Shown here: piece after piece, positions 1,046 to 19,765 of the stretch | Position numbering within the stretch: position 1 is the stretch's first letter | Layout of the letters: each line of letters begins with the position of its first letter | Virus record (IMG/VR): IMGVR_UViG_2541047718_000009 | Length of the DNA: 24,270 nucleotides | Strand: one strand, 5' to 3' | DNA from: a virus | Taxonomy: Duplodnaviria; Heunggongvirae; Uroviricota; Caudoviricetes | Notes under the pieces: model-generated | The model's input: only the letters and a program-made list of their open reading frames with translations | Told to the model about the DNA's origin: nothing | The model's database searches: none | Made by a program: the position numbers and the translations under genes

Positions 1046-1105
1046 TGAAAAATTAATCTGTTAATGAGTCCCACTCCGGTGGGATTTTTTATGTACGGAG
1101 TTTAT

Positions 1106-2434
1106 ATGACGTGGAAAGACAGACTTCAGGACGCGTCATTTCGCGGTGTGCCGTTTAAGGTTGAAGAAGAAAGTGCGGGAACCGGTCGTCGTGTGGAAAC
1201 GCACGAATACCCGAACCGCGACAAACCCTATACCGAAGACCTGGGGAAAATCACTTTCCGCCCGTCCATCACAGCTTATGTGGTGGGAGATGACTGCTTT
1301 GACCAGCGCGATCGCCTGATTGACGCGCTGAATAAACCCGGTCCCGGCACGCTTGTCCATCCGACTTACGGTGAGCTGAAAGTCTGTGTTGACGGGGAAG
1401 TTCGGGTCAGCACATCGAAGAGTGAAGGGCGTATTGTCCGCTTTGACCTGAAGTTTGTCGAAGCGGGAGAACTCTCTTACCCCACTTCAGGTGCGGCGAC
1501 GGCGCAGACGCTGATGTCATCCTGCTCTGCACTGGATGACTGCATCAGTGACAGCTTCAGTGGTTTCAGTATCGATGGCGTGGCGGATTTTGTGCAGAAC
1601 GACGTCGTCGGTAATGCCGGCACAATGCTGGGGTATGTTTCTGATGCGATGAAAGTGGTGGATTCTGCCGTATCGGATGCCGCCAGGCTGTTGCAGGGGG
1701 ATATCTCGGTACTTCTGCCGCCGCCATCGTCAGGCAAAAATTTCGTTGAGCAGGTGCAGAAAATGTGGCGTACCGGGAAACGCCTTTATGGTAACGCCAG
1801 CGACCTGGTCACCATGATCAAAACGCTTTCCGGTGTCAGCCTCGGCAGCGATCTGCAACCGCGCGGTGTCTGGAAAACGGACAGTAAAACCACCGCCACG
1901 GCGACGCAGCAGCGTAACGTGGTTGCCAGCATCCTTCGTACGACCGCAATCAGCGAAGCGGCGTATGCCGTCACCCGATTGCCTGCGCCAACAACTTCCG
2001 CGGTGATGCAGAATGCCGCAGTGGGGCAGGCAACAACACCCGCGCAGAGCACTGGCTGGCCTTCCGTCACGCATCCGGCACTGAACAATGCTCCGGCGGT
2101 GAAAAGCACGGTTGACCTGCCGACGTGGGAAGAACTGACTGACATTCGCGACACACTGAATACGGCAATTGATAAGGAGTTGTCCCGTACAACCAGTGAT
2201 GCGCTGTTTCTGGCGCTGCGCCGGGTGAAAGCAGATCTGAATGCGGATATCAACACGCGCCTTGAACAGTCTGCACGGATCATTCAGCGCACGCCGGATG
2301 AGGTTTTACCCGCGCTGGTGCTGGCGGCGACCTGGTTTGATAACGCGGCGCGTGACGTGGACATTATCCGGCGTAATGCCATTACGCATCCCGGCTTTGT
2401 GCCGGTGATCCCTCTGAAGGTGCCAGTGCAATGA
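1106..2434 (+). CDS. DNA circulation protein (Mu gp43/N-like), tail-associated
   Basis: The translation MTWKDRLQDASFRGVPFKVEEESAGTGRRVETHEYPNRDKPYTEDLGK... matches the N-terminal domain family of Mu N-type DNA circulation proteins. It sits between the tape measure and gp44-like genes. Start chosen at ATG 1106 because GGAG lies 5 nt upstream; the ORF track starts at 1064. Confidence 0.75.
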   Translation: MTWKDRLQDASFRGVPFKVEEESAGTGRRVETHEYPNRDKPYTEDLGKITFRPSITAYVVGDDCFDQRDRLIDALNKPGPGTLVHPTYGELKVCVDGEVRVSTSKSEGRIVRFDLKFVEAGELSYPTSGAATAQTLMSSCSALDDCISDSFSGFSIDGVADFVQNDVVGNAGTMLGYVSDAMKVVDSAVSDAARLLQGDISVLLPPPSSGKNFVEQVQKMWRTGKRLYGNASDLVTMIKTLSGVSLGSDLQPRGVWKTDSKTTATATQQRNVVASILRTTAISEAAYAVTRLPAPTTSAVMQNAAVGQATTPAQSTGWPSVTHPALNNAPAVKSTVDLPTWEELTDIRDTLNTAIDKELSRTTSDALFLALRRVKADLNADINTRLEQSARIIQRTPDEVLPALVLAATWFDNAARDVDIIRRNAITHPGFVPVIPLKVPVQ

Positions 2435-3510
2435 ACGATAACGTCACGCTACGGGTAAATGACCGGGAGTGGAATGGCTGGACATCGGTGCGCATCGGTG
2501 CCGGTGTTGAACGACTGGCGCGGGATTTCAGTGTGGAGATCACCCGCCAGTGGCCGGGAAATGAGGGTATTACCACGCTTCAGCCGCGCATTAAAAACGG
2601 TTCAAAAGTGGAAGTGCTGATTGGTGATGAGCTGGTGATCACCGGCTGGGTGGAGGCGACGCCCGTTCGTTACGATGCCCGTTCGGTCAGCACCGGTATT
2701 GCCGGACGTAGTCTGACCGCTGACCTGATTGACTGTGCAGCCGAACCGACACAGTTTAACGGACGATCGCTGGTACAGATTGCGCAGGCGCTTGCTGCGC
2801 CTTTCGGCATTGAGGTGGTGAACAGCGGTGCGCCGTCGGGTGTTATTCCTGATGTCCAGCCTGATCACGGTGAAACGGTGATTGAGGTGATCAACAAAAT
2901 ACTCGGTCAGCAGCAGGCGCTGGCTTACGACGACCCGCACGGCAGGCTGGTGATTGGCGGTATTGGCTCAACGCGTGCACATACCGCGCTGGTACTTGGG
3001 GAAAACATCCTTTCCTGTGATACGGAGAAGAGTATCCGGGAGCGGTTTTCTGTTTACCAGGTAGCGGGGCAGCGTGCCGGAAACGACGATGATTTCGGTG
3101 AGGCCACTACCACCGCGCTGCGGGCACGCACAGAGGACGCATTTATTGCCCGTTACCGTCCGATGTATATCAGGCAGACAGGGCAGGCCACGGGGGCTGG
3201 CTGTATTGCGCGTGCTGACTTTGAAGCCCGGCAACGGGCGGCGCGGACGGATGAAACCACCTATGTGGTGCAGGGCTGGCGACAGGGTAACGGTACGCTG
3301 TGGCAGCCCAACCAGCGGGTGATTGTCTTCGATCCGGTCTGTGGTTTCGACAATACCGAACTGCTTGTTTCGGAAGTCACGTTTACTCAGGACCAGAACG
3401 GCACCCTGACGGAAATCCGTGTCGGCCCGCCTGATGCTTATCTGCCTGAACCCGAAGCTCCCGGCGCGCGGAAAAAGAAAAAAGCCAGAGTACAGGAGGA
3501 CCCGTTCTGA
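2431..3510 (+). CDS. tail/baseplate hub protein (Mu gp44/P, phage late control D family)
   Basis: 359-aa product in the conserved position after the DNA circulation gene. Its start overlaps the upstream stop (ATGA), indicating translational coupling. Sequence is family-like by recall (NDNVTLRVNDREWNGWTSVRIG...). Confidence 0.7.
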   Translation: MNDNVTLRVNDREWNGWTSVRIGAGVERLARDFSVEITRQWPGNEGITTLQPRIKNGSKVEVLIGDELVITGWVEATPVRYDARSVSTGIAGRSLTADLIDCAAEPTQFNGRSLVQIAQALAAPFGIEVVNSGAPSGVIPDVQPDHGETVIEVINKILGQQQALAYDDPHGRLVIGGIGSTRAHTALVLGENILSCDTEKSIRERFSVYQVAGQRAGNDDDFGEATTTALRARTEDAFIARYRPMYIRQTGQATGAGCIARADFEARQRAARTDETTYVVQGWRQGNGTLWQPNQRVIVFDPVCGFDNTELLVSEVTFTQDQNGTLTEIRVGPPDAYLPEPEAPGARKKKKARVQEDPF

Positions 3511-4058
3511 TGAGGGCGATTGAAGCCATGCAGCGACAACTCCTCGGCCTGATTGGGCGGGCCGTGGTGAAAAGCATCAGTGCCGCCACGAAATGTCAGA
3601 CCGTGGATGTGTCCCTGATTGCCGGTGAACCCAAAGCCGGGGTTGAACATCTTGAACCCTACGGTTTTACCGCAAGGGCAAACAGCGGTGCGGAAGCGGT
3701 GGTGTTGTTTCCGGATGGCGACCGTTCTCATGCGGTGGTTGTTACGGTGTCGGACCGGCGCTACCGCCTGAAAGGGCTGCAGACGGGTGAGGTGGCTGTC
3801 TATGACGATCAGGGGCAGTCTGTGATGCTGACCCGGGAGGGGATCGTGGTGGACGGTGCAGGTAAAACGATCACGTTTCGCAATGCGCCCAGAGCACGTT
3901 TTGAAATGGACCTTGAAGTGACCGGACAGGTGAAAGACCTGTGCGACTCCGGCGGCACTACCATGTCAGCGATGCGGCTTGCCTATAACGGGCATCGTCA
4001 CAGAGAGAACGGTCAGGGCAGTAACACCGACAAACCTGATAAAGCGATGGAGGCATGA
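3510..4058 (+). CDS. baseplate assembly protein V (spike; Mu gp45-like)
   Basis: 182-aa product of gpV-like size and sequence style (MRAIEAMQRQLLGLIGRAVV...). Overlapping TGATG start-stop with the upstream gene. Confidence 0.75.
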   Translation: MRAIEAMQRQLLGLIGRAVVKSISAATKCQTVDVSLIAGEPKAGVEHLEPYGFTARANSGAEAVVLFPDGDRSHAVVVTVSDRRYRLKGLQTGEVAVYDDQGQSVMLTREGIVVDGAGKTITFRNAPRARFEMDLEVTGQVKDLCDSGGTTMSAMRLAYNGHRHRENGQGSNTDKPDKAMEA

Positions 4059-4483
4059 TGGAACTGTGGCTGACGGTGAACGGTAAACGCACCTGCGCCA
4101 GCGCACCGCTGGATCCGCTGACCCGCGCCGTGGTGATTTCCCTGTTTACCTGGCGGCGGGCGGAGCCTGATGACAACGCCGACGTCCCGATGGGATGGTG
4201 GGGGGATACCTGGCCTGCGGTACAGAATGACCGTTACGGCTCCCGACTGTGGCTGCTTCAGCGCAGCAAACTGACCAATCAGCTGGTGCAGACGGTAAGG
4301 GGGTATATCCGCGAATGCCTGCAATGGATGATTGATGACGGCGTGGTGTCCCGTATTGATCTGGATATCCGCCGCACCGGGATTAATGAACTGGGTAACA
4401 GTATCACTCTCTGGCGTCGTGACGGACCGGTAATGATTTCTTTTGATGATCTGTGGAGTGCGATAACGCATGGCGGACAGTGA
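4055..4483 (+). CDS. baseplate protein (Mu gp46 / GP25-W-like)
   Basis: 142-aa product in the conserved position between V-like and J-like genes. The start may be ATG 4058, which has better spacing to GGAGG at 4049-4053. Confidence 0.7.
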   Translation: MMELWLTVNGKRTCASAPLDPLTRAVVISLFTWRRAEPDDNADVPMGWWGDTWPAVQNDRYGSRLWLLQRSKLTNQLVQTVRGYIRECLQWMIDDGVVSRIDLDIRRTGINELGNSITLWRRDGPVMISFDDLWSAITHGGQ

Positions 4484-5528
4484 ATTTCAGCGCCCGACGC
4501 TGGCAGAAAATATCAGTATGCTCCGTAACGATTTATTCGCCAGGCTGGACGTCAGCGACACGCTCCGGCGCATGGATGAAGACGTGCGGGCAAAGGTGTA
4601 TGCGGCAGCGCTGCATACGGTTTACGGGTACATCGATTATCTGGCAATGAATATGCTGCCTGACCTGTGCGATGAGTCCTGGCTGGCGCGACATGCTGCG
4701 ATGAAACGGTGTCCGCGCAAGGGGGCCACGGCTGCCAGCGGGTATATGCGCTGGGAAGGTGTCAGCGATGGCCTGAAGGTGACTGCCGGGAGCGTGATTC
4801 AGCGCGATGACCTGGTTCAGTACACGGCAACTGCCGATGCAACCAGCGCCGGTGGTGTCCTGCGTGTGCCGATCACTTGCTCAACTACAGGCGCGGTCGG
4901 TAACGCTGACGACGGTACGGCATTAATCCTGGTCACGCCGGTGAATGGTCTGCCGTCTTCCGGTGTTGCAGATACCCTGACTGGCGGATTCGATACTGAA
5001 GATCTGGAAACGTGGCGCGCCCGCGTCATTGAGCGGTATTACTGGACGCCGCAGGGCGGGGCTGACGGGGACTATGTCGTCTGGGCTAAAGAAGTGCCCG
5101 GCATTACCCGCGCATGGACATACCGTCACTGGATGGGAACGGGAACTGTCGGTGTGATGATTGCCAGCAGTGACCTGATTAATCCCATTCCGGAAGAATC
5201 AACGGAAACGGCGGCAAGACAACATATCGAGCCACTGGCCCCGGTGGCAGGCTCTGATTTGTATGTGTTCAGGCCGGTGGCACATACGGTGGATTTTCAT
5301 ATCCGTGTGACGCCGGACACACCGGAAATACGGGCTGCCATCACCGCCGAGTTGCGTTCGTTCCTGCTGCGTGATGGTTATCCGCAGGGAGAACTGAAGG
5401 TGTCGCGTATCAGTGAAGCGATTTCCGGTGCGAACGGGGAATACAGCCATCAGTTGCTTGCACCAGCGGACAATATCTCCATTGCAAAAAATGAGCTGGC
5501 AGTTCTGGGGACGATTTCATGGACGTGA
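4470..5528 (+). CDS. baseplate J-like protein (Mu gp47-like)
   Basis: 352-aa product in the conserved order; overlaps the upstream gene by 14 nt. Confidence 0.75.
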
Positions 5529-6103
5529 CAAACGATGATTACATCCGTCTGTTGTCGGCGCTGCTGCCGCCCGGTCCGGCGTGGTCAGCCAGCGATCCGG
5601 CGATTGCCGGTGCGGCACCGTCATTAACTCGTGTTCATCAGCGTGCGGATGCCCTGATGCGGGAGCTGGATCCGCGCACCACCACCGAACTGATAAATCG
5701 CTGGGAGCGTCTGTGCGGCCTGCCGGATGAATGTATTCCCGCAGGGACACAGACCCTTCGCCAGCGTCAGCAACGGCTGGATGCGAAGGTTAACCTGGCG
5801 GGTGGCATCAACGAGGATTTTTATCTTGCACAGCTTGCTGCCCTGGGCAGACCAGATGCCACCATCACGCGATACGACAAAAGCACGTTCACCTGCTCAT
5901 CGGCCTGTACTGACGCGGTGAATGCGCCGGAATGGCGGTATTACTGGCAGGTCAACATGCCAACCACCACCAACACCACCTGGATGACATGTGGCGATCC
6001 CTGTGATTCCGCACTGCGTATCTGGGGTGACACCGTTGTCGAGTGTGTGCTTAACAAACTCTGCCCGTCGCATACCTACGTAATTTTTAAATATCCGGAG
6101 TAA
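5519..6103 (+). CDS. tail protein, DUF2313 / YmfQ / Mu gp48-like
   Basis: 194-aa product ([27 protein letters not shown]...) in the position directly upstream of the tail fiber gene; overlaps the J-like gene end. Confidence 0.7.
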
Positions 6104-6106
6104 TCC

Positions 6107-7057
6107 ATGCATCGTATAGACACGAAAACCGCGCAGAAGGATAAGTTCGGCGCGGGTAAGAACGGTTTTACCCGTGGTAACCCCCAGACCGGCACACCTG
6201 CCACCGATTTGGATGATGACTACTTTGACATGTTGCAGGAAGAACTTTGCAGCGTGGTGGAGGCCTCCGGTGCCAGCCTGGAGAAGGAGCGGCACGACCA
6301 GTTGCTTACCGCGCTTCGTGCGCTGCTGTTAAGCCGCAAGAATCCGTTTGGTGATATCAAATCGGACGGCACGGTGAAAACGGCTCTCGAAAATCTTGGT
6401 TTGGGAGATGGCTCCGGGAGGCTTATACAGTGTCAGGTGTTTAAAAGCTCAGGTACATACACTCCGACAAAAGGCACAAGATTTATTATTGTTGAAATTG
6501 TTGGTGGTGGTGGGGCCGGTGGTGGTTGTCAGGTCGGTTATCCCAATAATGCTGCTTGTGGTGGCGGGGGGATGTCTGGGGAGTATGTTAAAGCTCGCGT
6601 GGATAATCCAACCGTAACTACTGTGACAATAGGATATGGTGGCACTGGTGCAAGTGCGTCGGTTGGTGCTCCCGGGGGAGCAACCTCTTTCGGCAATACC
6701 ATAATTGCCAAAGGTGGTCTTGGTGGGAATGTTCTTGCTGAAGGCACTGCTCCTGGGGTTGTTGGTCCGTATGGAGCATATACTGAGCCGGGATTTACAG
6801 GTGCCAATATTATCGGGTCTGGAAGCGGTTATAGCTCACCAGGCGTTCGGTATTCCGGCAGTCTGGCGATGGGGGGGCCTGGCGGCGATTCAATCCTTGG
6901 TGCGGGGGCTGGGTCACAAGCCATTGTAGGCGAAGGTATTAATGCTAATGGCCATGGTGGTGGAGGCGGTGGTGCCTGTGTCTACGGTGGAGCGACGCAG
7001 CAGCGTGCCGGAGGTAGCGGAATGGCTGGTATTGCAATCATTTGGGAGTATGCGTGA
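6107..7057 (+). CDS. tail fiber protein: conserved N-terminal anchor region plus glycine-rich C-terminal distal domain
   Basis: ATG 6107 with GGAG 6 nt upstream. The N-terminal ~95 aa ([40 protein letters not shown]...) resemble prophage side-tail-fiber N-termini. The C-terminal two thirds are Gly-rich (GGGGAGGG..., HGGGGGGA) and the coding DNA becomes visibly more AT-rich from about 6400. Confidence 0.8.
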
Positions 7058-7452
7058 TGAACTATGCCGTTATAGAAAATGGTGTTGTTACCAATATTGC
7101 TGTATGGGATGGTGAGAGTGCCTGGCAACCAACTAATGCGTTAGTTATACCTGTATCCGATAATGTAAGAATTGGTTGGTTCTATGATAAGGGAAAGCTT
7201 TCGTCACCTACGCAGCCGCCAAAAACACATGATGAATTACTTCGTGAGGCAGAGAATGAAAGACAGTGTCTGCTGGATAGTGCTAATAGTTTAATTATGA
7301 ACTGGCAGTCAGATTTGTTACTCGGTATTATAAGTGAAAATAACAAGGGCAATCTTTTATTATGGAAGGAATATGTTAATAGTTTAATGTCAGTGGATTT
7401 ATCTTTAGTGCCAGAAATAACCTGGCCTGAAAGGCCAGAGATAATACGTTGA
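7057..7452 (+). CDS. tail fiber assembly chaperone (Tfa)
   Basis: ATGA overlap with the fiber stop at 7055-7057. The product [25 protein letters not shown]... has the typical Tfa N-terminus and size. The ORF track begins 5 codons earlier at 7042. Confidence 0.75.
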   Translation: MNYAVIENGVVTNIAVWDGESAWQPTNALVIPVSDNVRIGWFYDKGKLSSPTQPPKTHDELLREAENERQCLLDSANSLIMNWQSDLLLGIISENNKGNLLLWKEYVNSLMSVDLSLVPEITWPERPEIIR

Positions 7453-7469
7453 AATTATGTGGTGTATTA

Positions 7470-7489
7470 TTAGGGGGAGGCCCCCCTAA
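7470..7489. terminator. GC-rich hairpin between convergent tfa and acyltransferase genes (putative bidirectional terminator)
   Basis: TTAGGGGG (7470-7477), loop AGGC, CCCCCTAA (7482-7489): a perfect 8-bp stem. No clean U-tract on either side. Confidence 0.4.
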
Positions 7490-7493
7490 TAAA

Positions 7494-8519
7494 TTAGGAT
7501 GTGATTATTTTTCTGATTTTATCGTTCTTCTCCAGAAAGTGATAAGATAATGATGCCATTGCAGTATTAATAACAAAAAGTACAAGCCAGCTAAAAAGAC
7601 CATAGTTAAGAACAAATGAATTTTTATTATGATCAAGGTAATATAATATAGGTAATTGCATCAAATAAAACGAATAACTTATATCTCCAAAGTAAATGAT
7701 CGCTCTGTTTACAATATTGTTTTTGATGTTGATTTTTGCCAGGTGCAATAACATAATTGATATCGCAGGAATTGTGAGATAGTTCACCCCCATGGAGTTA
7801 TTGTTTTGCTGGGTGGTAGCATACAGAAATAATAAAATGCTTAATAGCCATGTATAATGGTTAACACGATAGCCATTTAAAAAAAGTATTGCGATACAGA
7901 CGCCCACCACAAATTCTGGTAACCTGTATATTGGAGTTGCGTAATATACGGACCAAACTACAGGTCCCTGAATTATATCAGATAATGGGATTAATAATGC
8001 TGAAGATAAATATGAAAAAAGTAAAACATAAATTACATTGTTTTTGTTGATGTTTTTTATCAAAAATGGAAATAGGGCATAAAAAAACAATTCCACTGAT
8101 ATTGACCAGGTACCGCTAAAATTCCAAAAATCGAAGGTCTGATAAATCCATGATTGCATTCCAGTAACAAACAAGAATATGCTTGCAATCATTTTTAAAA
8201 AGTTTGCATCGCTGGATAACAAAAATGGGAGGGTTAAAAGCCCACAAAATAAATAGGCTGGAAATATTCTTGCTATTCGCTTCCTGAAGTAATTGTTTGA
8301 CAAGGAACCATAGTAATTATAAGTCAAAACAAAACCAGAAAGCATGAAGAAAATACTCATGCCAATGACGCCATTGCTAATGGTTTTATTAATAAGCTCT
8401 CCAAAATTAACGGGGACTCTCATGTTAATGTGAAAAATAAACACATAAAAAGCAGCTATAAATCTTAAGATTGTTACTCCATCCATTTTTTTTCTTGTTA
8501 TGTTATTGGTACTAGTCAT
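7494..8519 (-). CDS. acyltransferase family 3 integral membrane protein (putative O-antigen / surface polysaccharide O-acetyltransferase)
   Basis: 341-aa very hydrophobic product with the family signatures: N-terminal R..H (GVTILRFIAAFYVFIFH), FFMLSGF and W-S-I-S-V-E-L-F-F-Y. The gene is strongly AT-rich relative to the flanking tail genes. Confidence 0.8.
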   Translation of the reverse strand: MTSTNNITRKKMDGVTILRFIAAFYVFIFHINMRVPVNFGELINKTISNGVIGMSIFFMLSGFVLTYNYYGSLSNNYFRKRIARIFPAYLFCGLLTLPFLLSSDANFLKMIASIFLFVTGMQSWIYQTFDFWNFSGTWSISVELFFYALFPFLIKNINKNNVIYVLLFSYLSSALLIPLSDIIQGPVVWSVYYATPIYRLPEFVVGVCIAILFLNGYRVNHYTWLLSILLFLYATTQQNNNSMGVNYLTIPAISIMLLHLAKINIKNNIVNRAIIYFGDISYSFYLMQLPILYYLDHNKNSFVLNYGLFSWLVLFVINTAMASLSYHFLEKNDKIRKIITS

Positions 8520-8715
8520 TTGAGGCTTCTCATGATTAAAAGGTTCGTTATTAAAACCATTAATAATACTCTACTTACTTATCAAGTATCAACGTTTTTA
8601 TGTGTGGTTTTAATTAACAGAATGCAAGAATAAATAATAATATTCTGTTTGCGATTTTTTAAATAATTGCACTTACTACTCCTCAGTGCGAGGGAGAATT
8701 GAGGATGGAATTGGG

Positions 8716-8858
8716 GGCTCCGTCCAAAATTTACCCCTGAATAATGGGTGTAGGCCAGGCGATTAATTGCATCAGGCGTTCCTCGCCAGAAGGTGGCGAT
8801 CATCTATGATGTTGGTATATCGACACTGTATAAGAAGTTTCCGGTCGGAGATAAATGA
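8716..8858 (+). pseudogene. remnant of a Gin/Pin/Hin-family serine DNA invertase (C-terminal HTH only; frameshifted, catalytic domain absent)
   Basis: The frame ending at TGA 8856-8858 reads ARRLIASGVPRQKVAIIYDVGISTLYKKFPVGDK, closely matching the C-terminal DNA-binding end of Gin/Pin-type invertases as I recall them (...QVALIYDVALSTLYKK...). An upstream GG-rich stretch (about 8730-8750) is recognisable only across frameshifts, and no N-terminal catalytic domain is encoded in 8520-8715. Confidence 0.65.
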
Positions 8859-8918
8859 AACCGTAGCACGTCGTATGCAAGAAGATCGTGCTGCGGTTTA
8901 TGCTTATCACTTAAAGAC

Positions 8919-9788
<870 letters not shown>

Positions 9789-10094
9789 CTAATCCTTTGA
9801 ATTTACATAGTAAAAAAAGATACTTTTCCTCATAGTGTGAATTAATTTTATGTTTCGTTTGATGATTGGACCGGTCTCGAAAACCGTAGGCACGTAGTAT
9901 GCGTTAATTTATGAGCAAACTACTTGTCTGCTGTTTTTCTGTCATTAGTCGTATATAGAATGATTCTCTATGCCTAACAAAGCATCACTAGTGCTAGATT
10001 ACGTTGTAGTCACTGTTTAAATATCCAGACAAAACATTTCCTTCTGGGTTGAATGAGTGATAGAGTTTCACCCATTAGACCCCTTGGAGGAATT

Positions 10095-11528
10095 ATGTCT
10101 GAATTTGAAGTGTTGGCACAGCATCTGCTGAAGGAAGCCGAGGCGGAAGAAAAGCTGCGACAGGAAAATGATAAAAAGCTTATCGAGAAAGTGCTGGAAA
10201 TCTATGATCAGAAGTATGTGGCTGAATTACTGAGAAAAGTCGGAAAAAATGAGTGGAGCCGTGAAACCATTAACCGCTGGATTAATGGCAAGTGTTTACC
10301 AAAATCGTTGACGTCAGTAGAAGAGTCTCTTCTGCGTAAGATGCTACCAGAACCACCTGCAAACCATCCGGAATATGCTTTCCGCTTCATTGACTTATTT
10401 GCTGGAATTGGAGGGATACGAAAAGGTTTTGAGGCTATTGGAGGCCAGTGTGTTTTTACCAGTGAATGGAATAAAGATGCTGTGCGTACATACAAGGCCA
10501 ACTGGTTTAACGATGAACAGGTGCATAAATTCAATCTCGATATTCGGGAAGTCACGTTGAGTGATAAAACCGATGTATTGGAAACGGATGCTTATGCATA
10601 TATTGATGAGCATGTGCCGGATCATGATGTGCTTCTTGCGGGGTTCCCGTGCCAGCCATTTAGTCTTGCTGGTGTTAGTAAGAAAAACTCACTTGGCCGT
10701 GCGCATGGTTTTGAATGTGAAGCACAAGGAACACTTTTTTTTGACGTGGCACGTATTATACGAGCAAAAAAACCGGCAATTTTTGTGCTGGAAAATGTCA
10801 AAAATCTGAAGAGCCATGATAAGGGTAAAACTTTCAAAGTCATTATGGAGACCCTTGACGAGCTGGGCTACGAAGTTGCCGATGCTGCAGAAATGGGAAA
10901 AAACGATCCAAAGATTATCGATGGGAAGCATTTTTTGCCTCAGCATCGTGAACGCATTGTTCTGGTCGGATTTAGACGAGATCTGAATATTCACAAGGGG
11001 TTTACCTTGCGTGATATCAGTCGTTTTTATCCGGAACACCGCCCATCATTTGGTGAATTGCTGGAGCCTGTAGTCGACAGTAAATATATACTTACGCCAA
11101 AACTATGGGAGTACCTTTATAACTACGCCAAAAAGCATGCAGCCAAGGGGAATGGTTTTGGCTTTGGGTTGGTCAATCCTGAGAATAAGGAAAGCATTGC
11201 ACGCACACTTTCTGCCAGATATCACAAAGACGGATCAGAAATTCTTATTGATCGTGGTTGGGATATGGCAACGGGAGAGGCTGACTTTATGAATGAGAGT
11301 AATCAGGCTCGTCGACCACGCAGGCTGACTCCCCGAGAGTGCGCACGCCTTATGGGATTTGAAAAACCTGGAGGGAAACCATTCCGTATTCCGGTTTCAG
11401 ATACTCAGTCATATCGGCAGTTCGGTAACTCAGTTGTGGTGCCAGTATTTGAAGCTGTTGCCAGACTTCTGGAACCCTATATCCTCAAAGCTGTTTCTGC
11501 TGATGCTGGTAAGACTGGGCAGCCTTGA
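10095..11528 (+). CDS. DNA (cytosine-5) methyltransferase, Dcm / M.EcoRII-like
   Basis: C5-MTase motifs are present: [12 protein letters not shown] (motif I), [11 protein letters not shown] (motif IV, catalytic Cys), ENVKNL (motif VI), [10 protein letters not shown] (motif X). ATG 10095 is preceded by GGAGG at 10086-10090, giving a 477-aa product; the ORF track start at 10053 lacks an RBS. Confidence 0.9.
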
Positions 11529-11562: not shown

Positions 11563-12777
11563 CTATGATAGTTCAGCGTAAAGCTCTATCAGCTCAGTAA
11601 TGAATGCTCCGAGCGTTATTAATTCTTCTCTAACTGCTTCTGGGTATTTTTTATGTAAAGTTGATGGTACAACGAGTCTGACACCCGCATCTTTCATTTC
11701 TCGGTATTGTGCTGAAGAAACACCTTCTTGCAGTGTAAATAAATGTACCTGATGGATTTTATCTGCTTCATTCAGTATCTGACGCCAGCGATCTTTGCAG
11801 GTGGTCTTTACTGCCAGCATACGTAAGTTTTCTACAGGAAATTCAACGTTATGATATGCCTCTGCTGAAGGAAACAGGAAATCTGGTTTTTTATTACCTT
11901 CAGTAACTGCCTGAGTGGAGAAATGCCGTAGTCCGTGCTCGATAAAAAGCTTCTCTAGGTGAAGTTCAAGTGATTTGCCTGCCCTTGATTTACGTCGATT
12001 ACTGACAGAGTTGGCTAATGCAATAAACTCATCTACAGAATCGAATCCTTTCTTAATAATATCAAGAACATGTAATTCCTCGACGAGTAGAAAAATATCA
12101 TACTCGACACGCCGACGGTCAATCAGTTGCTCATCTGGATCCTTGGAGTTTTTAGCATAATGGCCAGCAGCATATTGAATAATTTCGTTTCCAGAAGGAA
12201 AACGCTTCTTCCAGTCTTCAGGAATAACATATTTATGATTTACTGGAGTTTGCTGAAGAGATAATCCGCCCAAAATTTGTCCGGCAGGGCCGGAAATTAG
12301 GGTTCCAGGTATGATTTCGCCAATAGCAGACTCGATGATATCCTCTTCATCGGGATTGACGCAGACCCATATATCTACCTCGGAACAGTCAGTGTTCTGT
12401 TCGTTTAACCTGAAAGCAAGAATTGTGAGAGCTCCTGTATTTTCAGGGTTCTGTAATGGACTTCCTCTCCCCCAGCGCGTAATTCTTTTTTCGTTTCGGG
12501 TCTTACCAAAATAACGGTTGTTGTAATAAATTGCGCGTGCTTGGGTATCAGGGCAATCATGGGATGATACATGCGCAGTAAGGAAGACTGAAGGGTTCAG
12601 TTCGCGAGTATGATTGATAGATGGAAAAAGCTTTTCAACGATATTTGAGGGGATATAAAGTCCGACCTGATGGCCACCTGTTGCGCCAGTGTCGTTTGCA
12701 GAAAGGCGTTTGATGTAGATAAAGTAATTCCCGCTTGCGATATCAAGCAGCCAGTTATGAAAAACCGACATATACAT
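11563..12777 (-). CDS. type II restriction endonuclease, EcoRII family (CCWGG-type)
   Basis: 404-aa product whose N-terminus (MSVFHNWLL..YIKRLSANDTGATGGHQVGLYIPS) matches my recollection of R.EcoRII. It is convergent with a Dcm/M.EcoRII-like methylase. Family assignment is by recall, not a search. Confidence 0.7.
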   Translation of the reverse strand: MYMSVFHNWLLDIASGNYFIYIKRLSANDTGATGGHQVGLYIPSNIVEKLFPSINHTRELNPSVFLTAHVSSHDCPDTQARAIYYNNRYFGKTRNEKRITRWGRGSPLQNPENTGALTILAFRLNEQNTDCSEVDIWVCVNPDEEDIIESAIGEIIPGTLISGPAGQILGGLSLQQTPVNHKYVIPEDWKKRFPSGNEIIQYAAGHYAKNSKDPDEQLIDRRRVEYDIFLLVEELHVLDIIKKGFDSVDEFIALANSVSNRRKSRAGKSLELHLEKLFIEHGLRHFSTQAVTEGNKKPDFLFPSAEAYHNVEFPVENLRMLAVKTTCKDRWRQILNEADKIHQVHLFTLQEGVSSAQYREMKDAGVRLVVPSTLHKKYPEAVREELITLGAFITELIELYAELS

Positions 12778-13005: not shown

Positions 13006-13028
13006 TGGTGGAGCTGGCGGAGTTTGAA
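13006..13028. repeat. distal att site of the P4-like element (direct repeat of the ssrA 3' end)
   Basis: TGGTGGAGCTGGCGG at 13006-13020 is identical to 23869-23883 (complement of the tmRNA 3' terminus ...CCGCCAGCUCCACCA), with AGTTTGAA versus GAGTTGAA continuing the similarity. A 14-nt perfect palindrome CCAATCATGATTGG overlaps its left edge (12995-13008). Confidence 0.7.
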
Positions 13029-13162
13029 TAAATATTGTATTGCTTTGATTTTTAATGATTTTATTTAATTTAGTTTTTGTGCGTATACTTAATCGTATAC
13101 CAATGGCTGTAAGTTAATGTGAAATGAAAGCGCATTTTTACTTGGATTGATGCTATATCGTA

Positions 13163-13468
13163 CAGGAAAAAAATTTTTTTTCGAAAGAACTGTTCACACT
13201 GTTCACCTTTCTTTTTTCTCCTTTTATTTCAGAGTGATAGGTGGTGAATAATGGGTGAAGGGTGAACATTCGATTCTTCACCTCCGGCATTCTGCCGGTG
13301 TGACTCATACCGGTGATTAATCCCCCGTACTGAAATCACTCAGGAAGAAAAAAGTTTTTTTTGATTTGATTGTTCACACTGTTCACCTTTCGTTTTTCTC
13401 TTTTAATTTCAGTATGATAACGGGTGAATATACGGTGAAGGGTGAACACTGGATTGTTCACCTTCGGG
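13163..13468. repeat. crr-like cis replication region: two ~125-bp direct repeats carrying TGTTCACC / GGTGAACA iterons
   Basis: Unit 1 is about 13163-13286 and unit 2 about 13343-13468, period 180 bp. Exact octamers TGTTCACC occur at 13200-13207, 13380-13387 and 13455-13462, and GGTGAACA at 13261-13268 and 13441-13448, with further one-mismatch variants. Located immediately 3' of the alpha gene, as in P4. Confidence 0.75.
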
Positions 13469-13480
13469 GGATGTCGGGAT

Positions 13481-13506
13481 AAAAAAAAGACCGGCAGATG
13501 CCGGTC
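13481..13506 (-). terminator. rho-independent terminator after alpha
   Basis: On the minus strand: hairpin GACCGGCATCTGCCGGTC (13489-13506) followed by eight U (13481-13488), 8 nt after the alpha stop codon. Confidence 0.7.
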
Positions 13507-13513
13507 AGGTGGG

Positions 13514-15847
13514 TCAGGTTGTTGCAGGGGCGTCACATTTTGGCAGCCAGTCGCCGTAGCTTTCCTCTTTCAGCGTCAGGTTGGTCTGTATCCCCTGTTT
13601 GGTATGGCGCTTCTCGTAATTCAGCCCGTATTCTTTCAGCATCACCGGTAGCCCCAGTCCGAACATTTTCAGACTGAGTACATTCCGGTAGCCGTTTGCC
13701 TCCATGTAGGCCAGATAGGCGTGATAGAGGTATTTACGGTAATTACGCGGGATGATACTGGCGTTCCCCATATACATGCCGCTGGTCTGCGGCAGGGTTT
13801 CCAGATAGCCGATAAAATCAAACGTCGGGTCGGCATCCCGTTTGATGTTCAGTGCCTCGTCTGAGTTCTGCTGGGACTGAAGCAGTGACCGGGCGAGCAT
13901 CGGGTCGCTGAACTTCTGCATCAGGTGACGCACGATGACCGCCAGCTCGCGGGTGATTTTGTCCTTAAGCTGCGGGTCGCGCTCCTGCGGGGCTATCTGT
14001 TCCGGGAAGTGAATAATCACCCGCCGGCGTGACACGCCGCCGCTGCGGTCGGTGAAGCGCATCGGGTTATTGTTCACGGCCAGAATCACCGCCGGGATGT
14101 GCGTGGAGTACGCATCCCGGTATTTCGGGTCAACGGACACTGCATCGCCGCCGGTGATGGCCTTGAGTCCGGCTCCGTCGCCGCTCCATTTTTCCTGGTC
14201 CGGCAGGCGTATCAGTGAGAAGCCAGTTAACGCGGCACGTTCACGCGGGGATTCCAGCGTCTCAATGGTGGCCGACGTGGCGTTATCCTCACCGGCCAGC
14301 AGGGTGGCTATTTCGGCCATGATACTTTTGCCGCTGCCGCCGGGACCGGTCACCTCCAGAAAGAGCTGCCAGTCGTAGCGGTTTGCCAGCACCATAAACA
14401 GTGCGGCCAGAATCACGTCGCGTTTTTCCGCACGACCACCGGCAGCACGGTCAAGCCAGCGCCAGAACGCGGGAGCGTGGGTTTCCAGCGTTTCACCGTC
14501 CACCGGCGGGGTGAAATCCACATCACACAGGGTACGCATCCAGTGTGACGGACTGTGCGGGTGGAACGTACCGTTCTGCGTGTCGAGCACGCCGTTACGA
14601 AAGCCAATCAGGCGGCGGGAGGGGGCTTCCTGCTGCGGAATAATCAGCTTCAGGGTGTCCACCACGGAGGCCACCTTCCCGGAGGAGAACGGCGCGCGCA
14701 GACGCTGAAACAGCCCGGCCACATCCCGGGCAAAGTCCTGTGGCGGCAGCACCTTCCAGACACCATTTTCATAGCGGGACAGAAGCTGGCCGTTGGCATC
14801 GACCGCGAGCGCCTCGCCGTAATGCTCATAGATACGCATGGCCTTTTCGCTGGTACTCATGGCGGAAAACTCCGCTTCGCTCATGGTGTCGAACGGGCTT
14901 TCAGCCGGTGGCCGGATGGCATCATAAATGGCCTTACGGGTGGCTTCCCCGCCGTACTGCGTGAAGGCATCATTCCAGTCACCGAAGACCGGCGGCAGGG
15001 CAACAACACCTTCACACGCATCTGCGGCTGCGGCGGCTTTTTTCTGGCCGTCACCGCTGAGGTCACGGTCAGCAGCAAGGACAATCTGACAGGCCGGATG
15101 CTTCTGCCGGGCAAGGCTGGACAGAGAAAGGAGATTCACGGAAGAAAGCGCCACCATCACCGTTTCACCGGTCAGGTGATGCACGGTAAGTGCGGTCGCG
15201 TATCCCTCCGCTATCCACAGACGTTTTCCGGCCTGATTCTGTCCTTCAAGGGTGTGACAGGTGCCCCTGACCTGTCCGCCTTTCAGGGTGCGCTTACGGC
15301 CGTCAGCACTGATTAACTGAAGGTTAACCAGTTCGCCGCTGTCGTCATACAGTGGCACCACAAGGTCACCAGCACGCCAGCTCACGCCACCGGCTCTGTG
15401 TGTGCCGGTCAGCATCCGGCATTCCCGGCCGGGAAAGCCCTTGCGGGTCAGGTAGGCGTTACCGGTTCCGGGACGGGTTTTCGCTATCAGGGTTTGTGCC
15501 AGTGCGGCGGCGTTCTTCCGGGCAGCGTCTGTTTCAGCACCGGCGGCGGCCGTCACTGCCGGGTCAGCCGGGGGCAGGCTGCCGGTCACGGCAGCCACCT
15601 TTGCGGCCGCGTCGGACGGGGAGACACCAAACACCTTTTCAACCAGTTTCAGGCCGTCACCGGCACCACACTGATTGCAGTACCAGGTGCCGCGCCCCTC
15701 CCTGTCATCAAAACGGAAGCGGTCACTCCCGCCACAGACCGGACAGGGCTGATGACGGTTTTTCAGCACCTGAATCCCCAGCGCCGGGAGAATACGCGGC
15801 CAGTGGCCGAGCGCATGGCTGACGGTGGCGGTTACGTTCATTTTCAT
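13514..15847 (-). CDS. alpha: P4 alpha-type primase-helicase (replication initiator)
   Basis: 777-aa product with an N-terminal zinc-binding CPVCGG...CNQCG motif and a primase/D5-type helicase arrangement; I recall P4 alpha as about the same length. AAGGAG lies 9 nt upstream of ATG 15847. Flanked by iteron regions. Confidence 0.85.
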   Translation of the reverse strand: MKMNVTATVSHALGHWPRILPALGIQVLKNRHQPCPVCGGSDRFRFDDREGRGTWYCNQCGAGDGLKLVEKVFGVSPSDAAAKVAAVTGSLPPADPAVTAAAGAETDAARKNAAALAQTLIAKTRPGTGNAYLTRKGFPGRECRMLTGTHRAGGVSWRAGDLVVPLYDDSGELVNLQLISADGRKRTLKGGQVRGTCHTLEGQNQAGKRLWIAEGYATALTVHHLTGETVMVALSSVNLLSLSSLARQKHPACQIVLAADRDLSGDGQKKAAAAADACEGVVALPPVFGDWNDAFTQYGGEATRKAIYDAIRPPAESPFDTMSEAEFSAMSTSEKAMRIYEHYGEALAVDANGQLLSRYENGVWKVLPPQDFARDVAGLFQRLRAPFSSGKVASVVDTLKLIIPQQEAPSRRLIGFRNGVLDTQNGTFHPHSPSHWMRTLCDVDFTPPVDGETLETHAPAFWRWLDRAAGGRAEKRDVILAALFMVLANRYDWQLFLEVTGPGGSGKSIMAEIATLLAGEDNATSATIETLESPRERAALTGFSLIRLPDQEKWSGDGAGLKAITGGDAVSVDPKYRDAYSTHIPAVILAVNNNPMRFTDRSGGVSRRRVIIHFPEQIAPQERDPQLKDKITRELAVIVRHLMQKFSDPMLARSLLQSQQNSDEALNIKRDADPTFDFIGYLETLPQTSGMYMGNASIIPRNYRKYLYHAYLAYMEANGYRNVLSLKMFGLGLPVMLKEYGLNYEKRHTKQGIQTNLTLKEESYGDWLPKCDAPATT

Positions 15848-15861
15848 GGTGTTGTTCTCCT

Positions 15862-16182
15862 TCAGTGCAGTACCGGCGCTTTTATGTGACGGGCACAGAG
15901 TTCATCCATCACAACCAGCCCGAGAAAGGACAGCGACGGCGCGGCCTTCAGGGGGCCGGATTCCATTAAATCTTCCAGCAGGGCACAGGCTATCTGACGC
16001 CCTTTTTCCTCACCGTGCTGGCGCAGATAAAAGCCTTCCAGCTCAGCGGCGATGGCCGCCTCCAGTGATTCAAGGGTGAGATGCGGGTAGCGGTGCTGAC
16101 GTTCGCACACGGTCAGCCAGGCACAGGCGACAGCACGACGGTAAAGGGCTGCGCGTAAGACGGGCGGTAAGGGTGTTTTCAT
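15862..16182 (-). CDS. hypothetical protein of the P4-like left operon (106 aa)
   Basis: GGAGG 6 nt upstream of ATG 16182; stop lies 14 nt before the alpha start. Function unknown. Confidence 0.6.
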
Positions 16183-16317
16183 TTGCTTTCCTCCCTGTGA
16201 CAGATGACTGCATTCCGTGCCGGTTGCATTAACTGATAAGGCATATCTGCGTCTCCTGAAGACGTGCGTATCCCTGCGCGAATACGCACATTTAATTTTT
16301 CGGGTGTCGTTTTTTAA

Positions 16318-16773
16318 TTACAGATAATTGCGGTAACTGTTATCCGGGGTGGTTTCCGGGTCAGGCTCCGTGCGGGGAATTTCCCGCCATTCCCGCGCCA
16401 CCGGTGCCGCCCGGCTGACCGGAACAGGGGCCTGCGGGTAAATATCCAGATATTTCTCCCGCCATTTCTGTAATTCCGGGTCTCCGGCCATTTCTTTCAG
16501 TACCGCATGCCGGTTTACGGGGCTGCGTTTAAACAGGTCAGGACGGTCACAGGTAAATTCCCGCAGAAAACGCCCCAGCGGGATGTCTGTGGTGCGCCCG
16601 TCAGCGAGGATACGCACAAGGATACTGAATTTACGGCGGTACGGGTTCCAGACAATGTCCGGGCAGCGGTACGGCATTTCCCACGGAATACCGTCTTCCA
16701 GAATGCCGACCACGGCCACATCGGGAAAACCGGCAGAACGGTAAATCTCACCGGGCTGGGGAAAATCAAACAT
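16318..16773 (-). CDS. hypothetical protein of the P4-like left operon (151 aa; P4 orf151-like by position and size)
   Basis: GGGGAG RBS upstream of ATG 16773; overlaps the stop of the upstream small gene. Confidence 0.6.
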   Translation of the reverse strand: MFDFPQPGEIYRSAGFPDVAVVGILEDGIPWEMPYRCPDIVWNPYRRKFSILVRILADGRTTDIPLGRFLREFTCDRPDLFKRSPVNRHAVLKEMAGDPELQKWREKYLDIYPQAPVPVSRAAPVAREWREIPRTEPDPETTPDNSYRNYL

Positions 16774-17053
16774 GCGTCCTGTCTCCCCGGTCTTTCTGCT
16801 GGGCGAGAAAATCGCGGCACAGGCCTTTGGCTTTCAGCTCATTCAGCACAAAATCAATATCTTCATTCAGGTAGCTGAAAATATGCGGAATGTAGAGCTG
16901 ATGCAGGCCGGAGAGTTCACGGTGAATCAAATCCCCCCCAACAAACTGGGATACGGCGCTGGCGCGGTTGAGCTTATGGTAAGCCTCAATGCTGAGGTGT
17001 TCACGGGCGTCATGACGTGCTGAGACGGTCTGAGGGGCTTTTTTATTACGCAC
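16766..17053 (-). CDS. small left-operon protein (95 aa), possible epsilon-like derepressor (assigned by position only)
   Basis: GTG 17053 is preceded by GGAGG with 6-nt spacing. The longer ORF-track version (to 17209) adds a Cys/Pro-rich N-terminus without an RBS and is judged spurious. Confidence 0.4.
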
Positions 17054-17243
17054 GGGACACCTCCACCACCGGCAGACGGGCAGCAAGGGAGAGCACATAG
17101 TCACGGACAAGGGAACGGCGGGCACTGCGTTCATCACCGGCGACGGTGCGAAGCATACAGATACGGGGATGACGGTCTGCGCGACGGACAGCCGCAAACA
17201 CAAAGACAAATTCAGGGTGTGAAGGGGTAAGGGTTGTAGCCAT
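17046..17243 (-). CDS. small protein (65 aa), unknown function
   Basis: ATG 17243 is preceded by GGAGG at 8-nt spacing; its stop overlaps the start of the 95-aa gene, suggesting coupling. It is the C-terminal part of ORF-track entry 17046..17690, whose upstream portion lacks support. Confidence 0.4.
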
Positions 17244-17641
17244 GATGGCAGCCTCCGTTAGATAGCAGGTTACGCTATCGCCGGAGTTTCCACGCTCGAT
17301 GGCGATAGCCCAGACGGGGGTGGAAATACCGGCTCTAACGGATACCGGCCAGCCCGGAGGCTGCCCCGCCTGAGCTACCATTGACTCTGCGGCATAATGA
17401 GCGGACGCGGGCAGGATGCACGGAGTGCCATCTGCTCGACTGACCACACACCACACCATAATCTGGCGCTCTGTGGCGTTGATTGCGACACAAAAAAAGA
17501 CGCATGGCGCGTCATATGTCGCCGTTAGATTGCTCGGGTTTCCACGCCCGGCTGCCGATTTTGCGACAGCGGAAAAACTATATCCGCAAATGCCGGAAAA
17601 AGGCAAGCCAGAAAAAGGGACTTTTTGCAGAACAGGCATCA

Positions 17642-17908
17642 TCATGCGTCGTACCCCCGTTTGCGTCCGGCAATGCGTCCGGCCATCCATGCGGTGACTT
17701 CAGAGTGCAGCCAGGCCACATTTTTACCGCCAAGACTCACCTGCGGCGGAAATTCCCCCTTACGGATGAGTTCGTAGATGGTCGAGCGTGACAGGCCGCA
17801 CAGGTGCATCACTTCCGGCAGACGTAAAAAACGCTCCTGCGTGATGTCCGGCAGCGGCATCAGTGGCGTCACAGGGGCGGGAGACGGGGAAGAAAAAACA
17901 GCTTGCAT
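17642..17908 (-). CDS. vis: AlpA / P4 Vis-family small HTH regulator (excision and transcription control)
   Basis: 88-aa product with the AlpA-type signature [54 protein letters not shown] 7 nt upstream. First gene of the leftward operon next to ori. Confidence 0.75.
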
Positions 17909-18188
17909 CGGGCTACCTCGTTAATGTCCATACAGCACCGGATAAGTCCGTCCGGCTTCGGGTAGCGCTTTATTTTGTGAATATTTTCAGCAGACGCAAC
18001 AGGGGGGATTTGTTCCGGCAGCCTTACAATGGCTGTGCATTTTTTTGTACATCAGCGCCAGATAGCTTTAAAACGCTCTGGAAGGAGCTGGAAAAAATTA
18101 TAGTGAAATACAAATTGTTTTTTCTTATTTATTTCAGTGAATTAATAAAAATAAAAAGTAATAAACAGCACAAAAAGCCCATCAACGG

Positions 18189-18291
18189 GTGAACAGTGGT
18201 GAACAGACGGTGAACAGTCATTACTGCGATTGTTCACCCTTTAACTTACTGTATTACTTATCTTTTTTATTAAGGTGAACAGAGGTGAACA
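18189..18291. promoter_or_regulatory. P4-type origin of replication (ori): iteron cluster around an AT-rich spacer
   Basis: GGTGAACA at 18189-18196, 18198-18205, 18209-18216, 18274-18281 and 18284-18291; TGTTCACC at 18231-18238; AT-rich stretch at 18240-18273. About 4.9 kb from the crr repeats, consistent with my recollection of P4 ori-crr spacing of about 4.5 kb. Confidence 0.75.
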
Positions 18292-18370
18292 GTAAAATAT
18301 AAAAAAACAAACAGTAAGCCGGTTTTTCCTGCGACCTTTTCCTGGCTTGCCGGTCTGAGGATGAGTCTCC

Positions 18371-18388
18371 TGTGTCAGGGCTGGCACA
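18371..18388 (+). promoter_or_regulatory. late-promoter activator site (TGT-N12-ACA dyad) upstream of sid
   Basis: TGT (18371-18373), 12 nt, ACA (18386-18388), centred about 80 nt upstream of the sid ATG. This matches the Ogr/Delta-dependent late promoter architecture of P2/P4. Confidence 0.55.
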
Positions 18389-18460
18389 TCTGCAATGCGT
18401 CGTGTTGTTGTCCGGTGTACGTCACAATTTTCTTAACCTGAAGTGACGAGGAGCCGGAAA

Positions 18461-19692: not shown

Positions 19693-19765
19693 GGGCTGCC
19701 GGTTAACACCGGCCGTCGCCGCACACCGTATTTTTATTCTTCAGCATGATGAGAAAGAGATAACG

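Follow-up and report, generated by a model that had tools for sequence, protein, structure and literature searches.

An acyltransferase-3 gene in place of half of an invertible tail-fiber segment: a putative O-antigen-modifying moron linked to Escherichia coli serogroup O7

Modification of the O-antigen by phage-encoded membrane acyltransferases of the AT3 family is a well-known phenomenon: these enzymes acetylate the O-antigen and thereby hinder the tailspike or fiber of their own phage (PMC9558356). The family as a whole acts on many classes of substrates (PMC9558356). AT3-only enzymes are thought to bind acyl-CoA on the cytoplasmic side of the membrane through an Arg/His pair in TMH1, and to deliver its acyl moiety to a sugar acceptor in the periplasm (PMC9558356, PMC7448272). 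The defining motifs, namely, R/K-X10-H in TMH1, FFXISG in TMH2 and RXXR after TMH2 (PMC7448272), are essential, as demonstrated by mutagenesis of OafA and Oac, for example, of R14 and H25 in OafA (PMC7448272). The oac gene of phage Sf6, which encodes the archetype of these O-antigen acetylases, is a lysogenic-conversion gene that is responsible for seroconversion and for exclusion of Sf6 (PMC9558356), whereas OafA and OafB (family II GtrC, encoded by the Salmonella prophage BTP1) are AT3 O-antigen acetylases carried by phages or islands that protect against the cognate phage (PMC9558356). E. coli 4s that has lost O-acetylation of its O-antigen shows an altered sensitivity to several phages (PMC4728585), and in Klebsiella, prophage acetyltransferases are linked to the capsule type (PMC13123978). 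The presence of an AT3 gene among tail genes has already been noted as well: PhiBZS1_p24 of the temperate Serratia phage vB_SspM_BZS1 lies among the tail and structural genes, in the opposite orientation, and was interpreted by its authors as an Oac-like O-antigen acetylase (PMC7556043).

The other described systems that are pertinent to the locus analyzed here are the invertible tail-fiber segments, Mu G/Gin, e14 P/Pin and P1 C/Cin. In e14, the pix site within stf has an inverted partner beside pinE, and between the two sites lie tfaP and the inverted tfaE and stfE. A further parallel, in logic, is provided by llp of T5 and cor of lambdoid phages, where the gene for receptor recognition has, as its neighbor, a gene that puts this receptor of the phage out of action. 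The products of llp and cor (for lambdoid cor, see PMC12373910) differ from the protein described here in that they are small lipoproteins or proteins that block a protein receptor, FhuA, rather than enzymes that modify a glycan.

The window, that is, the entire 24,270-base stretch of DNA that was analyzed, has 100% identical counterparts in the E. coli AR_0013 chromosome and in one further human isolate. It maps to ssrA, the tmRNA gene, which is an integration hot spot, and its gene order, read from the left, is as follows: a tape-measure gene cut short by an IS3 element; a Mu/e14-type baseplate block; a tail-fiber gene and its chaperone; the acyltransferase gene, on the minus strand; an invertase stub; a PD-T4-3 GIY-YIG defense gene; an EcoRII-type restriction-modification pair; a P4-like satellite inserted into ssrA; and ssrA itself. 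The same arrangement, without the P4-like satellite, is found in strain IAI39. The prophage that carries the acyltransferase gene is a remnant that lacks head genes and has its tape-measure gene truncated by IS3. Because such a remnant is unable to make virions, the proposal of the initial annotation that the gene alters the receptor for "this phage" has to be understood as referring to intact relatives.

The acyltransferase gene (7494-8519, minus strand) is an intact open reading frame (ORF) of 341 codons, from ATG to stop. Residues 14-316 of the protein align with positions 3-314 of the 326 in the Pfam profile Acyl_transf_3 (PF01757; E=2.6e-26, 92.9 bits, against a curated cut-off of 31 bits), and the protein also matches PHROG 3333, 'O-acetyltransferase' (1.7e-40). 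In RefSeq, it is already annotated as 'acyltransferase family protein' (WP_000204788.1). The GC content is 31.6% in the gene and 31.7% in the entire insert (7453-8714), compared with 57% in the tail genes (1064-7057). All the AT3 motifs are intact, R19-X10-H30, FFMLSG (residues 57-62) and RIAR (residues 81-84), and in an alignment of 24 homologs, with identity down to 33%, the residues R19, H30, F57, F58, S61, G62, R81 and R84 are invariant. The initial description of an AT-rich acyltransferase-3 gene on the opposite strand, with the family motifs preserved, is borne out by these observations.

An AlphaFold2 model of the protein, built from the 24-homolog alignment, is all-helical (mean pLDDT 89.9, pTM 0.89), in keeping with the polytopic membrane fold of ~10 TM helices that characterizes the family. 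Both this model and the Pfam search indicate an AT3-only architecture, with no second Pfam domain and no SGNH domain. A search of the PDB sequences with the AT3 family profile found no AT3 structure. In a Foldseek search of the PDB, the highest-probability matches were GWT1 and HGSNAT, both weak (TM 0.42-0.44, E>0.1; no match at E<=0.001). GWT1 and HGSNAT are acyl-CoA-dependent transmembrane acyltransferases, and the matches to the model are consistent with, but no proof of, membership of the window protein in the transmembrane acyltransferase superfamily.

No match to positions 7400-8900 was found by megablast among 50,697 phage genomes, and tblastn against these genomes retrieved distant AT3 genes alone (25-29% identity); Sf6 is absent from the tblastn matches at E<=1e-5. 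The NCBIfam search yielded no match and no equivalog, and a literature search by protein accessions and locus tags found no paper naming the gene. In a scan of species-representative genomes, almost all of the matches listed were distant AT3 genes from unrelated phyla, with a single close one, in Buttiauxella.

Sf6 Oac (~335 aa) resembles the window protein in its AT3-only architecture and in the FFxxSG and RxxR motifs. The gene layout is the same, too: oac follows directly, and is convergent to, the tailspike gene, with an annotated terminator between the two genes, and has its own promoter. However, the similarity between the two proteins is limited to a local match of 50 residues, in the motif block (40% identity, E=2e-6), so that the window protein is not an ortholog of Oac. 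The phages themselves differ, too, Sf6 being a P22-like podovirus with a tailspike, whereas the window encodes a Mu/e14-type tail with a fiber and a chaperone. With only the local Oac match and no match in NCBIfam, orthology to Oac, OacB-D or OafB was not detected. OafA and OafB share the R/K-X10-H and RXXR motifs with the window protein (PMC7448272) but are AT3-SGNH fusions that have an additional, 11th helix and, in the periplasm, an SGNH domain, unlike the 341-aa, AT3-only window protein. PhiBZS1_p24, which resembles the window gene in its placement, comes from a different host genus, and neither a serogroup link nor cassette exchange has been described for it.

The genes to the left of the acyltransferase gene are those of an e14-type tail-fiber region. 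The last conserved backbone gene before the fiber (5519-6103, plus strand) encodes a YmfQ/Mu gp48-like baseplate protein (Pfam Phage_Mu_Gp48, 1e-26) that is 98.5% identical to YmfQ of e14. The intact tail-fiber gene stf (6107-7057, plus strand; 316 aa) consists of a constant N-terminal part (6107-6415) and a variable glycine-rich tip (6416-7057). Residues 1-103 of Stf are 96% identical to StfP of e14, and the similarity ends abruptly at this point, coinciding with a pix-type crossover site (pixL; 6386-6407, plus strand). This site, CTCGAAAATCTTGGTTTGGGAG, differs from that of e14 at a single base, a match for which the chance expectation is 0, and marks the constant/variable junction of stf. 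Residues 37-104 weakly match the tail fiber protein S of phage Mu, residues 116-312 correspond to the Pfam family Gly_rich_2, and PHROG tail-fiber families match Stf as well. PGAP calls just the N-terminal part of stf, as a 'StfP pseudogene', yet the ORF is open throughout. The next gene, tfa, encodes the tail-fiber assembly chaperone (7042-7452, plus strand, PGAP start at 7057; WP_001104983.1; Pfam Caudo_TAP, 2.5e-23; PHROG 188).

On the other side of the acyltransferase gene, at 8715-8855 on the plus strand, lies a remnant of a Pin/Gin-family invertase that was detected by tblastn with PinE (76.6% identity over 47 aa, E=7e-20) and comprises the C-terminal HTH, PinE residues 138-184, with an internal stop. 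PGAP treats it as a pseudogene ('HTH domain protein, internal stop, missing N-terminus'). A 73-aa ORF (8582-8803, minus strand) that overlaps this remnant in antisense has no family match and was treated as spurious.

In its backbone (YmfQ and the constant part of Stf), the pix site at the junction and the downstream pin, the window resembles the invertible segments of Mu, e14 and P1; in contrast to these, it lacks the second pix site, the inverted gene pair and Pin residues 1-137, and contains the acyltransferase segment instead. The canonical order is retained in the sister prophage of strain E10, at the same ssrA locus, where stf and tfaE are followed by inverted tfa' and stf', and then by pin, the inverted pair occupying exactly the position of the acyltransferase gene. 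Both e14 and E10 have two pix sites, in inverted orientation, whereas the window has one, within stf; a search of the window for a second site with up to 5 mismatches found none, nor was one found in the loci of strains T309.Ta3 and NRZ14408. The tblastn searches of the window with TfaE and StfE yielded no match. This comparison indicates that an AT-rich segment of ~1.26 kb replaced the inverted tfa'-stf' pair, the second pix site (pixR) and about two-thirds of pin, of which the last 47 codons are retained. The fiber region of the window accordingly can no longer invert, with the fiber frozen in one orientation. The initial annotation placed the gene in the slot of the inverted alternative tail-fiber genes, an assignment that is corroborated by the gene order in E10, the PinE remnant beyond the gene, the one pix site against two, and the e14-type YmfQ and StfP. 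We also looked for traces of how the insert arrived, such as flanking repeats or IS ends. Apart from one perfect inverted repeat of 13 nt, the significance of which is doubtful, this search yielded nothing but short matches of the kind that is typical in AT-rich sequence.

The pix site, the fiber tip, tfa, the acyltransferase gene and the pin remnant comprise a single cassette, bordered by the pix site on the left and the pin remnant on the right. This cassette is common to three unrelated prophage backbones that reside at three chromosomal sites, ssrA, att-lambda and tRNA-Pro, with 96-98% identity. In E. coli B REL606, a different prophage remnant, located at att-lambda, shares positions 6539-8819 of the window with 98.4% identity; the shared stretch comprises tfa and the acyltransferase gene, with the distal half of the fiber gene on one side and part of the pin stub on the other. 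In strain NRZ14408, the cassette lies at att-lambda, too, where it forms the end of a myovirus prophage of a different type that seems to be complete and has DUF3383 and DUF3277 tail genes. In strain T309.Ta3, an apparently complete prophage at tRNA-Pro/yejM, with an HK97-type head and a Mu-type tail, has a 96% identical cassette allele at its end. One IMG/VR locus (L016) becomes homologous to the window at the pix site, from position 6385 onward, and the right-hand end of the homology, at 8819, inside the pin stub, is common to five loci. Among 5,426 complete E. coli genomes, the fiber tip and tfa were detected in 69 and the acyltransferase gene in 66, and the fiber tip and the acyltransferase gene were almost never found apart. 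Every copy of the cassette that was examined has the same truncated pin and lacks the second pix site, which indicates that the replacement happened once and that the block then spread between prophages, we infer, by recombination in the conserved flanks.

A more specific, tentative proposal, which we consider possible rather than probable, is that the fiber tip, the chaperone and the acyltransferase form a portable, O7-specific 'recognize-and-mask' module that is bounded by the pix site and the pin stub, and is swapped through its flanks into prophages with Pin-type fiber regions. Such swapping would explain the high identity of the cassette across the three backbones and integration sites. 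The acyltransferase clade, the reconstructed displacement of half of an invertible fiber segment, and the movement of the block nearly confined to one serogroup appear to be new.

Placement convergent to receptor-binding genes recurs among homologs of the acyltransferase with 40-69% identity. Homologs with 43-69% identity are located directly after, and convergent to, fiber, chaperone or tailspike genes of P2-like, other myoviral and lambdoid tails: a P2-type fiber and chaperone, the chaperone of a different myovirus, and lambdoid side-fiber genes in prophages of Enterobacter and Citrobacter. Among 20 non-redundant IMG/VR contigs encoding homologs with 35-57% identity, the next gene is a convergent fiber, chaperone or tailspike gene in 11 (8 of the 10 assessed with PHROGs, and 3 of the 10 assessed with Pfam, which is less sensitive here). 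There are exceptions: the Pectobacterium homolog adjoins only a tail-tube fragment, the Photobacterium homolog is chromosomal, and the Buttiauxella homolog adjoins another AT3 gene and an IS3 transposase, with no fiber.

The acyltransferase gene is oriented opposite to the late operon, with a promoter match of its own and a hairpin that it shares with tfa. The predicted sigma-70 promoter (8563-8592, minus strand), which is a consensus match (TTGATA, an 18-nt spacer and TATTAT), scores 10/12, the best match within 7300-9000, and lies within the AT-rich insert, ~45 nt ahead of the start codon. The GC-rich hairpin (7467-7492), with an 11-bp stem, occupies the gap where tfa and the acyltransferase gene converge, flanked by their stop codons. 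Its predicted RNA folding energy is -17 kcal/mol for either strand (z-scores, -2.4 and -3.6 for the two strands), and it is a likely bidirectional terminator for the two genes, though it lacks a clear U-tract. The acyltransferase gene is under purifying selection: dN/dS is ~0.11 between the window and the 96% identical allele of T309.Ta3 (26 synonymous and 11 non-synonymous changes), and 0.16-0.20 between the window and the att-lambda alleles. The ORF is full length in 65 of the 66 carrier genomes; in the remaining one, CE10, it is split by a 1-bp insertion that causes a frameshift.

Carriage of the acyltransferase gene is linked to serogroup O7. The O7 wzy gene was detected in 97 of the 5,426 complete E. 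coli genomes. The cross-check covered 61 of the 66 carriers and 95 of the 97 genomes with O7 wzy, and at least 57 of these 61 carriers have O7 wzy. At most two of the four other checked carriers, CP031215, CP135658, CP182191 and OZ465017, can be O7, so that at least two carriers are non-O7. Thus, the link between the gene and O7 is strong but not absolute. The naive Fisher p of 1e-103 overstates independence because many of the carriers, about half, are clonal laboratory derivatives of E. coli B. The diversity of the carriers is a better guide to the independence of the link: three insertion sites and prophage backbones are represented, as are two alleles each of wzy and the acyltransferase gene, and the sources comprise humans, mice, poultry, a horse and seawater. 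IAI39, CE10 and the database entry for a close homolog are all labelled O7. In E. coli B, the O7-type O-antigen cluster is disrupted by IS1; this strain makes no O-antigen, yet its acyltransferase ORF stays intact.

Given that the fiber tip and the enzyme are almost never separated, the data cannot tell which of the two drives the restriction to O7, and the host range of the fiber alone could yield it. The simplest reading is that the fiber recognizes the O7 antigen and the enzyme modifies it. A literature search found no report of an O-acetylated O7 antigen. To our knowledge, the published O7 repeat contains no O-acetyl group. The absence of a known O-acetylated O7 structure can be taken either as a counterpoint to O7 acetylation or as a prediction that follows from it.

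The most likely role of the gene, which we favor with modest confidence, is that of a moron encoding an O-acetylase of the O7 O-antigen that would cause seroconversion and superinfection exclusion, given the analogy with the phage AT3 enzymes and the link to O7. The initial annotation had proposed a likely lysogenic-conversion moron and, as far as the sequence goes, this proposal is supported by the opposite strand, the promoter match, the hairpin, the low GC content, the Sf6-like layout, the purifying selection and the near-restriction to O7. The main competing explanation is that the enzyme acts on another envelope glycan, such as the LPS core, enterobacterial common antigen, capsule, colanic acid, osmoregulated glucans or peptidoglycan, and that the O7 link stems solely from the host range of the co-inherited fiber. 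We regard this as the less likely possibility, but one that deserves serious consideration: AT3 enzymes act on all these classes of substrates (PMC9558356), the window protein has no close characterized relative by either the NCBIfam search or the comparison with Oac, the contributions of the tightly linked fiber tip and enzyme to the O7 association are inseparable, and an intact copy is kept by E. coli B in the absence of O-antigen. The last point carries little weight because the loss of the O-antigen in E. coli B is a recent event that occurred in the laboratory. Moreover, the characterized phage-borne AT3 enzymes covered in PMC9558356 all modify the O-antigen, and the capsule types of the carriers differ, IAI39 and CE10 being K1, whereas E. 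coli B is not. Furthermore, placement convergent to a receptor-binding gene recurs across phage types and matches that of Sf6 oac, an arrangement that makes sense if the enzyme masks what the fiber binds.

That the gene is an inert hitchhiker, carried along with the fiber genes in decaying prophage remnants and either unexpressed or useless, appears improbable. The state of the window prophage, a headless remnant with a truncated tape-measure gene, would fit this explanation, as would the dead neighboring pin, the frameshifted copy in CE10 and a promoter that is a consensus match only. The gene is, however, also present in the apparently complete prophages of strains T309.Ta3 and NRZ14408, and the intact ORF in 65 of 66 genomes, the dN/dS of 0.11-0.20 and the invariance of the catalytic residues in homologs with identity down to 33% all argue for function; an open frame of 341 codons in DNA with 32% GC would not persist without selection. 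Still less credible is a role of the gene in the adjacent anti-phage defense island, as a partner of PD-T4-3 and EcoRII instead of the tail fiber. The ends of prophages are known defense hot spots, and the PD-T4-3 GIY-YIG gene is 400 bp away from the acyltransferase gene, which also neighbors the EcoRII restriction-modification pair. However, a PADLOC-DB search gave no match for the acyltransferase, whereas its neighbors matched the PD-T4-3 and type II restriction-modification models, and the constant partners of the gene are the fiber tip and tfa. In T309.Ta3 and NRZ14408, the cassette has other neighbors, without PD-T4-3 or EcoRII, and on this ground, membership in the defense island was rejected.

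In the scheme that follows from the favored role, O-acetylation of the O7 antigen, we infer both the acyl donor and its acceptor, as well as the expression of the gene in the lysogen and the exclusion phenotype. The entry of the AT-rich segment, which cost the region its inverted tfa'-stf' pair, one of its two pix sites and ~137 codons from the start of pin, would have locked the fiber in one orientation. In the lysogen, cytoplasmic acyl-CoA would then serve the enzyme as the donor of an acyl group, probably acetyl, which would be taken up with the help of the Arg/His pair in TMH1 and of RXXR. The group would next cross the membrane and be attached to a sugar in the periplasm, the most likely acceptor being the repeat unit of the O7 O-antigen, which the linked fiber tip would recognize. 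O-acetylated O7 would be bound less well by the linked fiber or by related phages, resulting in superinfection exclusion, and its epitope would be changed, resulting in seroconversion.

If this scheme is correct, most wild O7 strains make an O-acetylated O7 variant that has so far not been described. Most wild O7 E. coli, including O7:K1 extra-intestinal pathogens such as IAI39 and CE10, would then display a modified O-antigen that is missed by standard serotyping and by the published structure, with a bearing on the prediction of host range in phage therapy, on glycoconjugate vaccine design, and on phage work with O7-restored derivatives of E. coli B and K-12. The locus itself offers what appears to be a clean natural example of host-range switching, through an invertible fiber segment, being traded for a receptor-modifying gene, and of the joint transfer of a fiber tip and its presumed masking enzyme, as a block, from prophage to prophage. 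Should the 'recognize-and-mask' interpretation prove true, receptor-binding and receptor-masking specificities would co-evolve as one transferable unit.

In the fibre gene of the window (6107-7057), whose tip belongs to the acyltransferase-bearing cassette, PGAP marks just the first ~100 codons, classing them as a pseudogene of 'StfP' (the fibre protein of prophage e14) that is incomplete, and the remainder carries no annotation. The reading frame is nevertheless open across 316 codons, with a Gly_rich_2 domain at its end. The gene looks intact and is probably mis-annotated in E. coli AR_0013, IAI39 and T309.Ta3; in some other records, the product is named 'glycine-rich domain-containing protein'.

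The borders of the cassette contain a perfect 13-nt inverted repeat. The left arm (CTTATACAGTGTC, 6422-6434) lies just inside the pix site, and the right arm (GACACTGTATAAG, 8822-8834) is located in the pin stub, 3 nt past the common right-hand end of homology (8819). The chance expectation for such 13-nt inverted pairs in the cassette stretch is ~0.05. The repeat may be a coincidence or may be connected with the mode of cassette recombination.

Immediately past the pin stub, the window encodes a GIY-YIG nuclease on the minus strand (8919-9743; Pfam LEM-3_GIY-YIG), identified as the single-gene anti-phage defence system PD-T4-3 (PADLOC, 2.7e-140), in the position that is occupied by mcrA in e14. 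Activity of PD-T4-3 against T-even phages has been demonstrated in a native host (bioRxiv 10.1101/2024.12.20.629700). The DNA that separates the prophage remnant from the old ssrA junction encodes an EcoRII-type restriction-modification pair. Its C5 methyltransferase (10053-11528, plus strand) is Dcm-like and has a DNA_meth_N domain, and its endonuclease (11563-12777, minus strand) has the domains EcoRII-N and EcoRII-C. A P4-like satellite is inserted in ssrA (13006-23868); the 15 nt at 13006-13020 copy the 3' end of ssrA and repeat 23869-23883. The satellite has genes for a primase-helicase and an integrase, an icd-like gene, and sid, delta and psu. Between psu and int, the satellite carries an AT-rich (35% GC) cargo gene for a ResIII/DEAD helicase (20657-22465), whose PADLOC matches, to PbeA and to type IV restriction enzymes, are weak. 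The entire satellite is absent from IAI39.

In the att-lambda prophages of the O7 strains NRZ14408 and REL606, a 445-aa ORF, for which no match was found in Pfam, comes after the cassette, together with a second AT3 acyltransferase gene (15417-17937 of the NRZ14408 locus, L094, and 16511-19031 of the REL606 locus, L004). The product of the latter gene (381 aa, WP_000603805, PF01757 at 9e-31) matches the window acyltransferase at the motif level only, and thus each of these prophages carries two different, unrelated AT3 genes.

The acyltransferase gene is intact in IAI39 and AR_0013, close relatives of strain CE10 (O7:K1). The CE10 copy (NC_017646.1, 3123494-3124520) has 1 bp more and appears in the annotation as two CDS, indicating that the gene is frameshifted in this strain. 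Within the E. coli B lineage, BL21, REL606 and other non-DE3 strains are present among the 61 of the 66 carriers of this gene that were listed, whereas none of the BL21(DE3)-type genomes (DE3 lysogens) seen among the O7 genomes appears in that set. Provisionally, given that the other five carriers fall outside the listing, this distribution suggests that, upon DE3 integration, the prophage remnant resident at att-lambda was lost or replaced, or that this happened at least to the acyltransferase gene.
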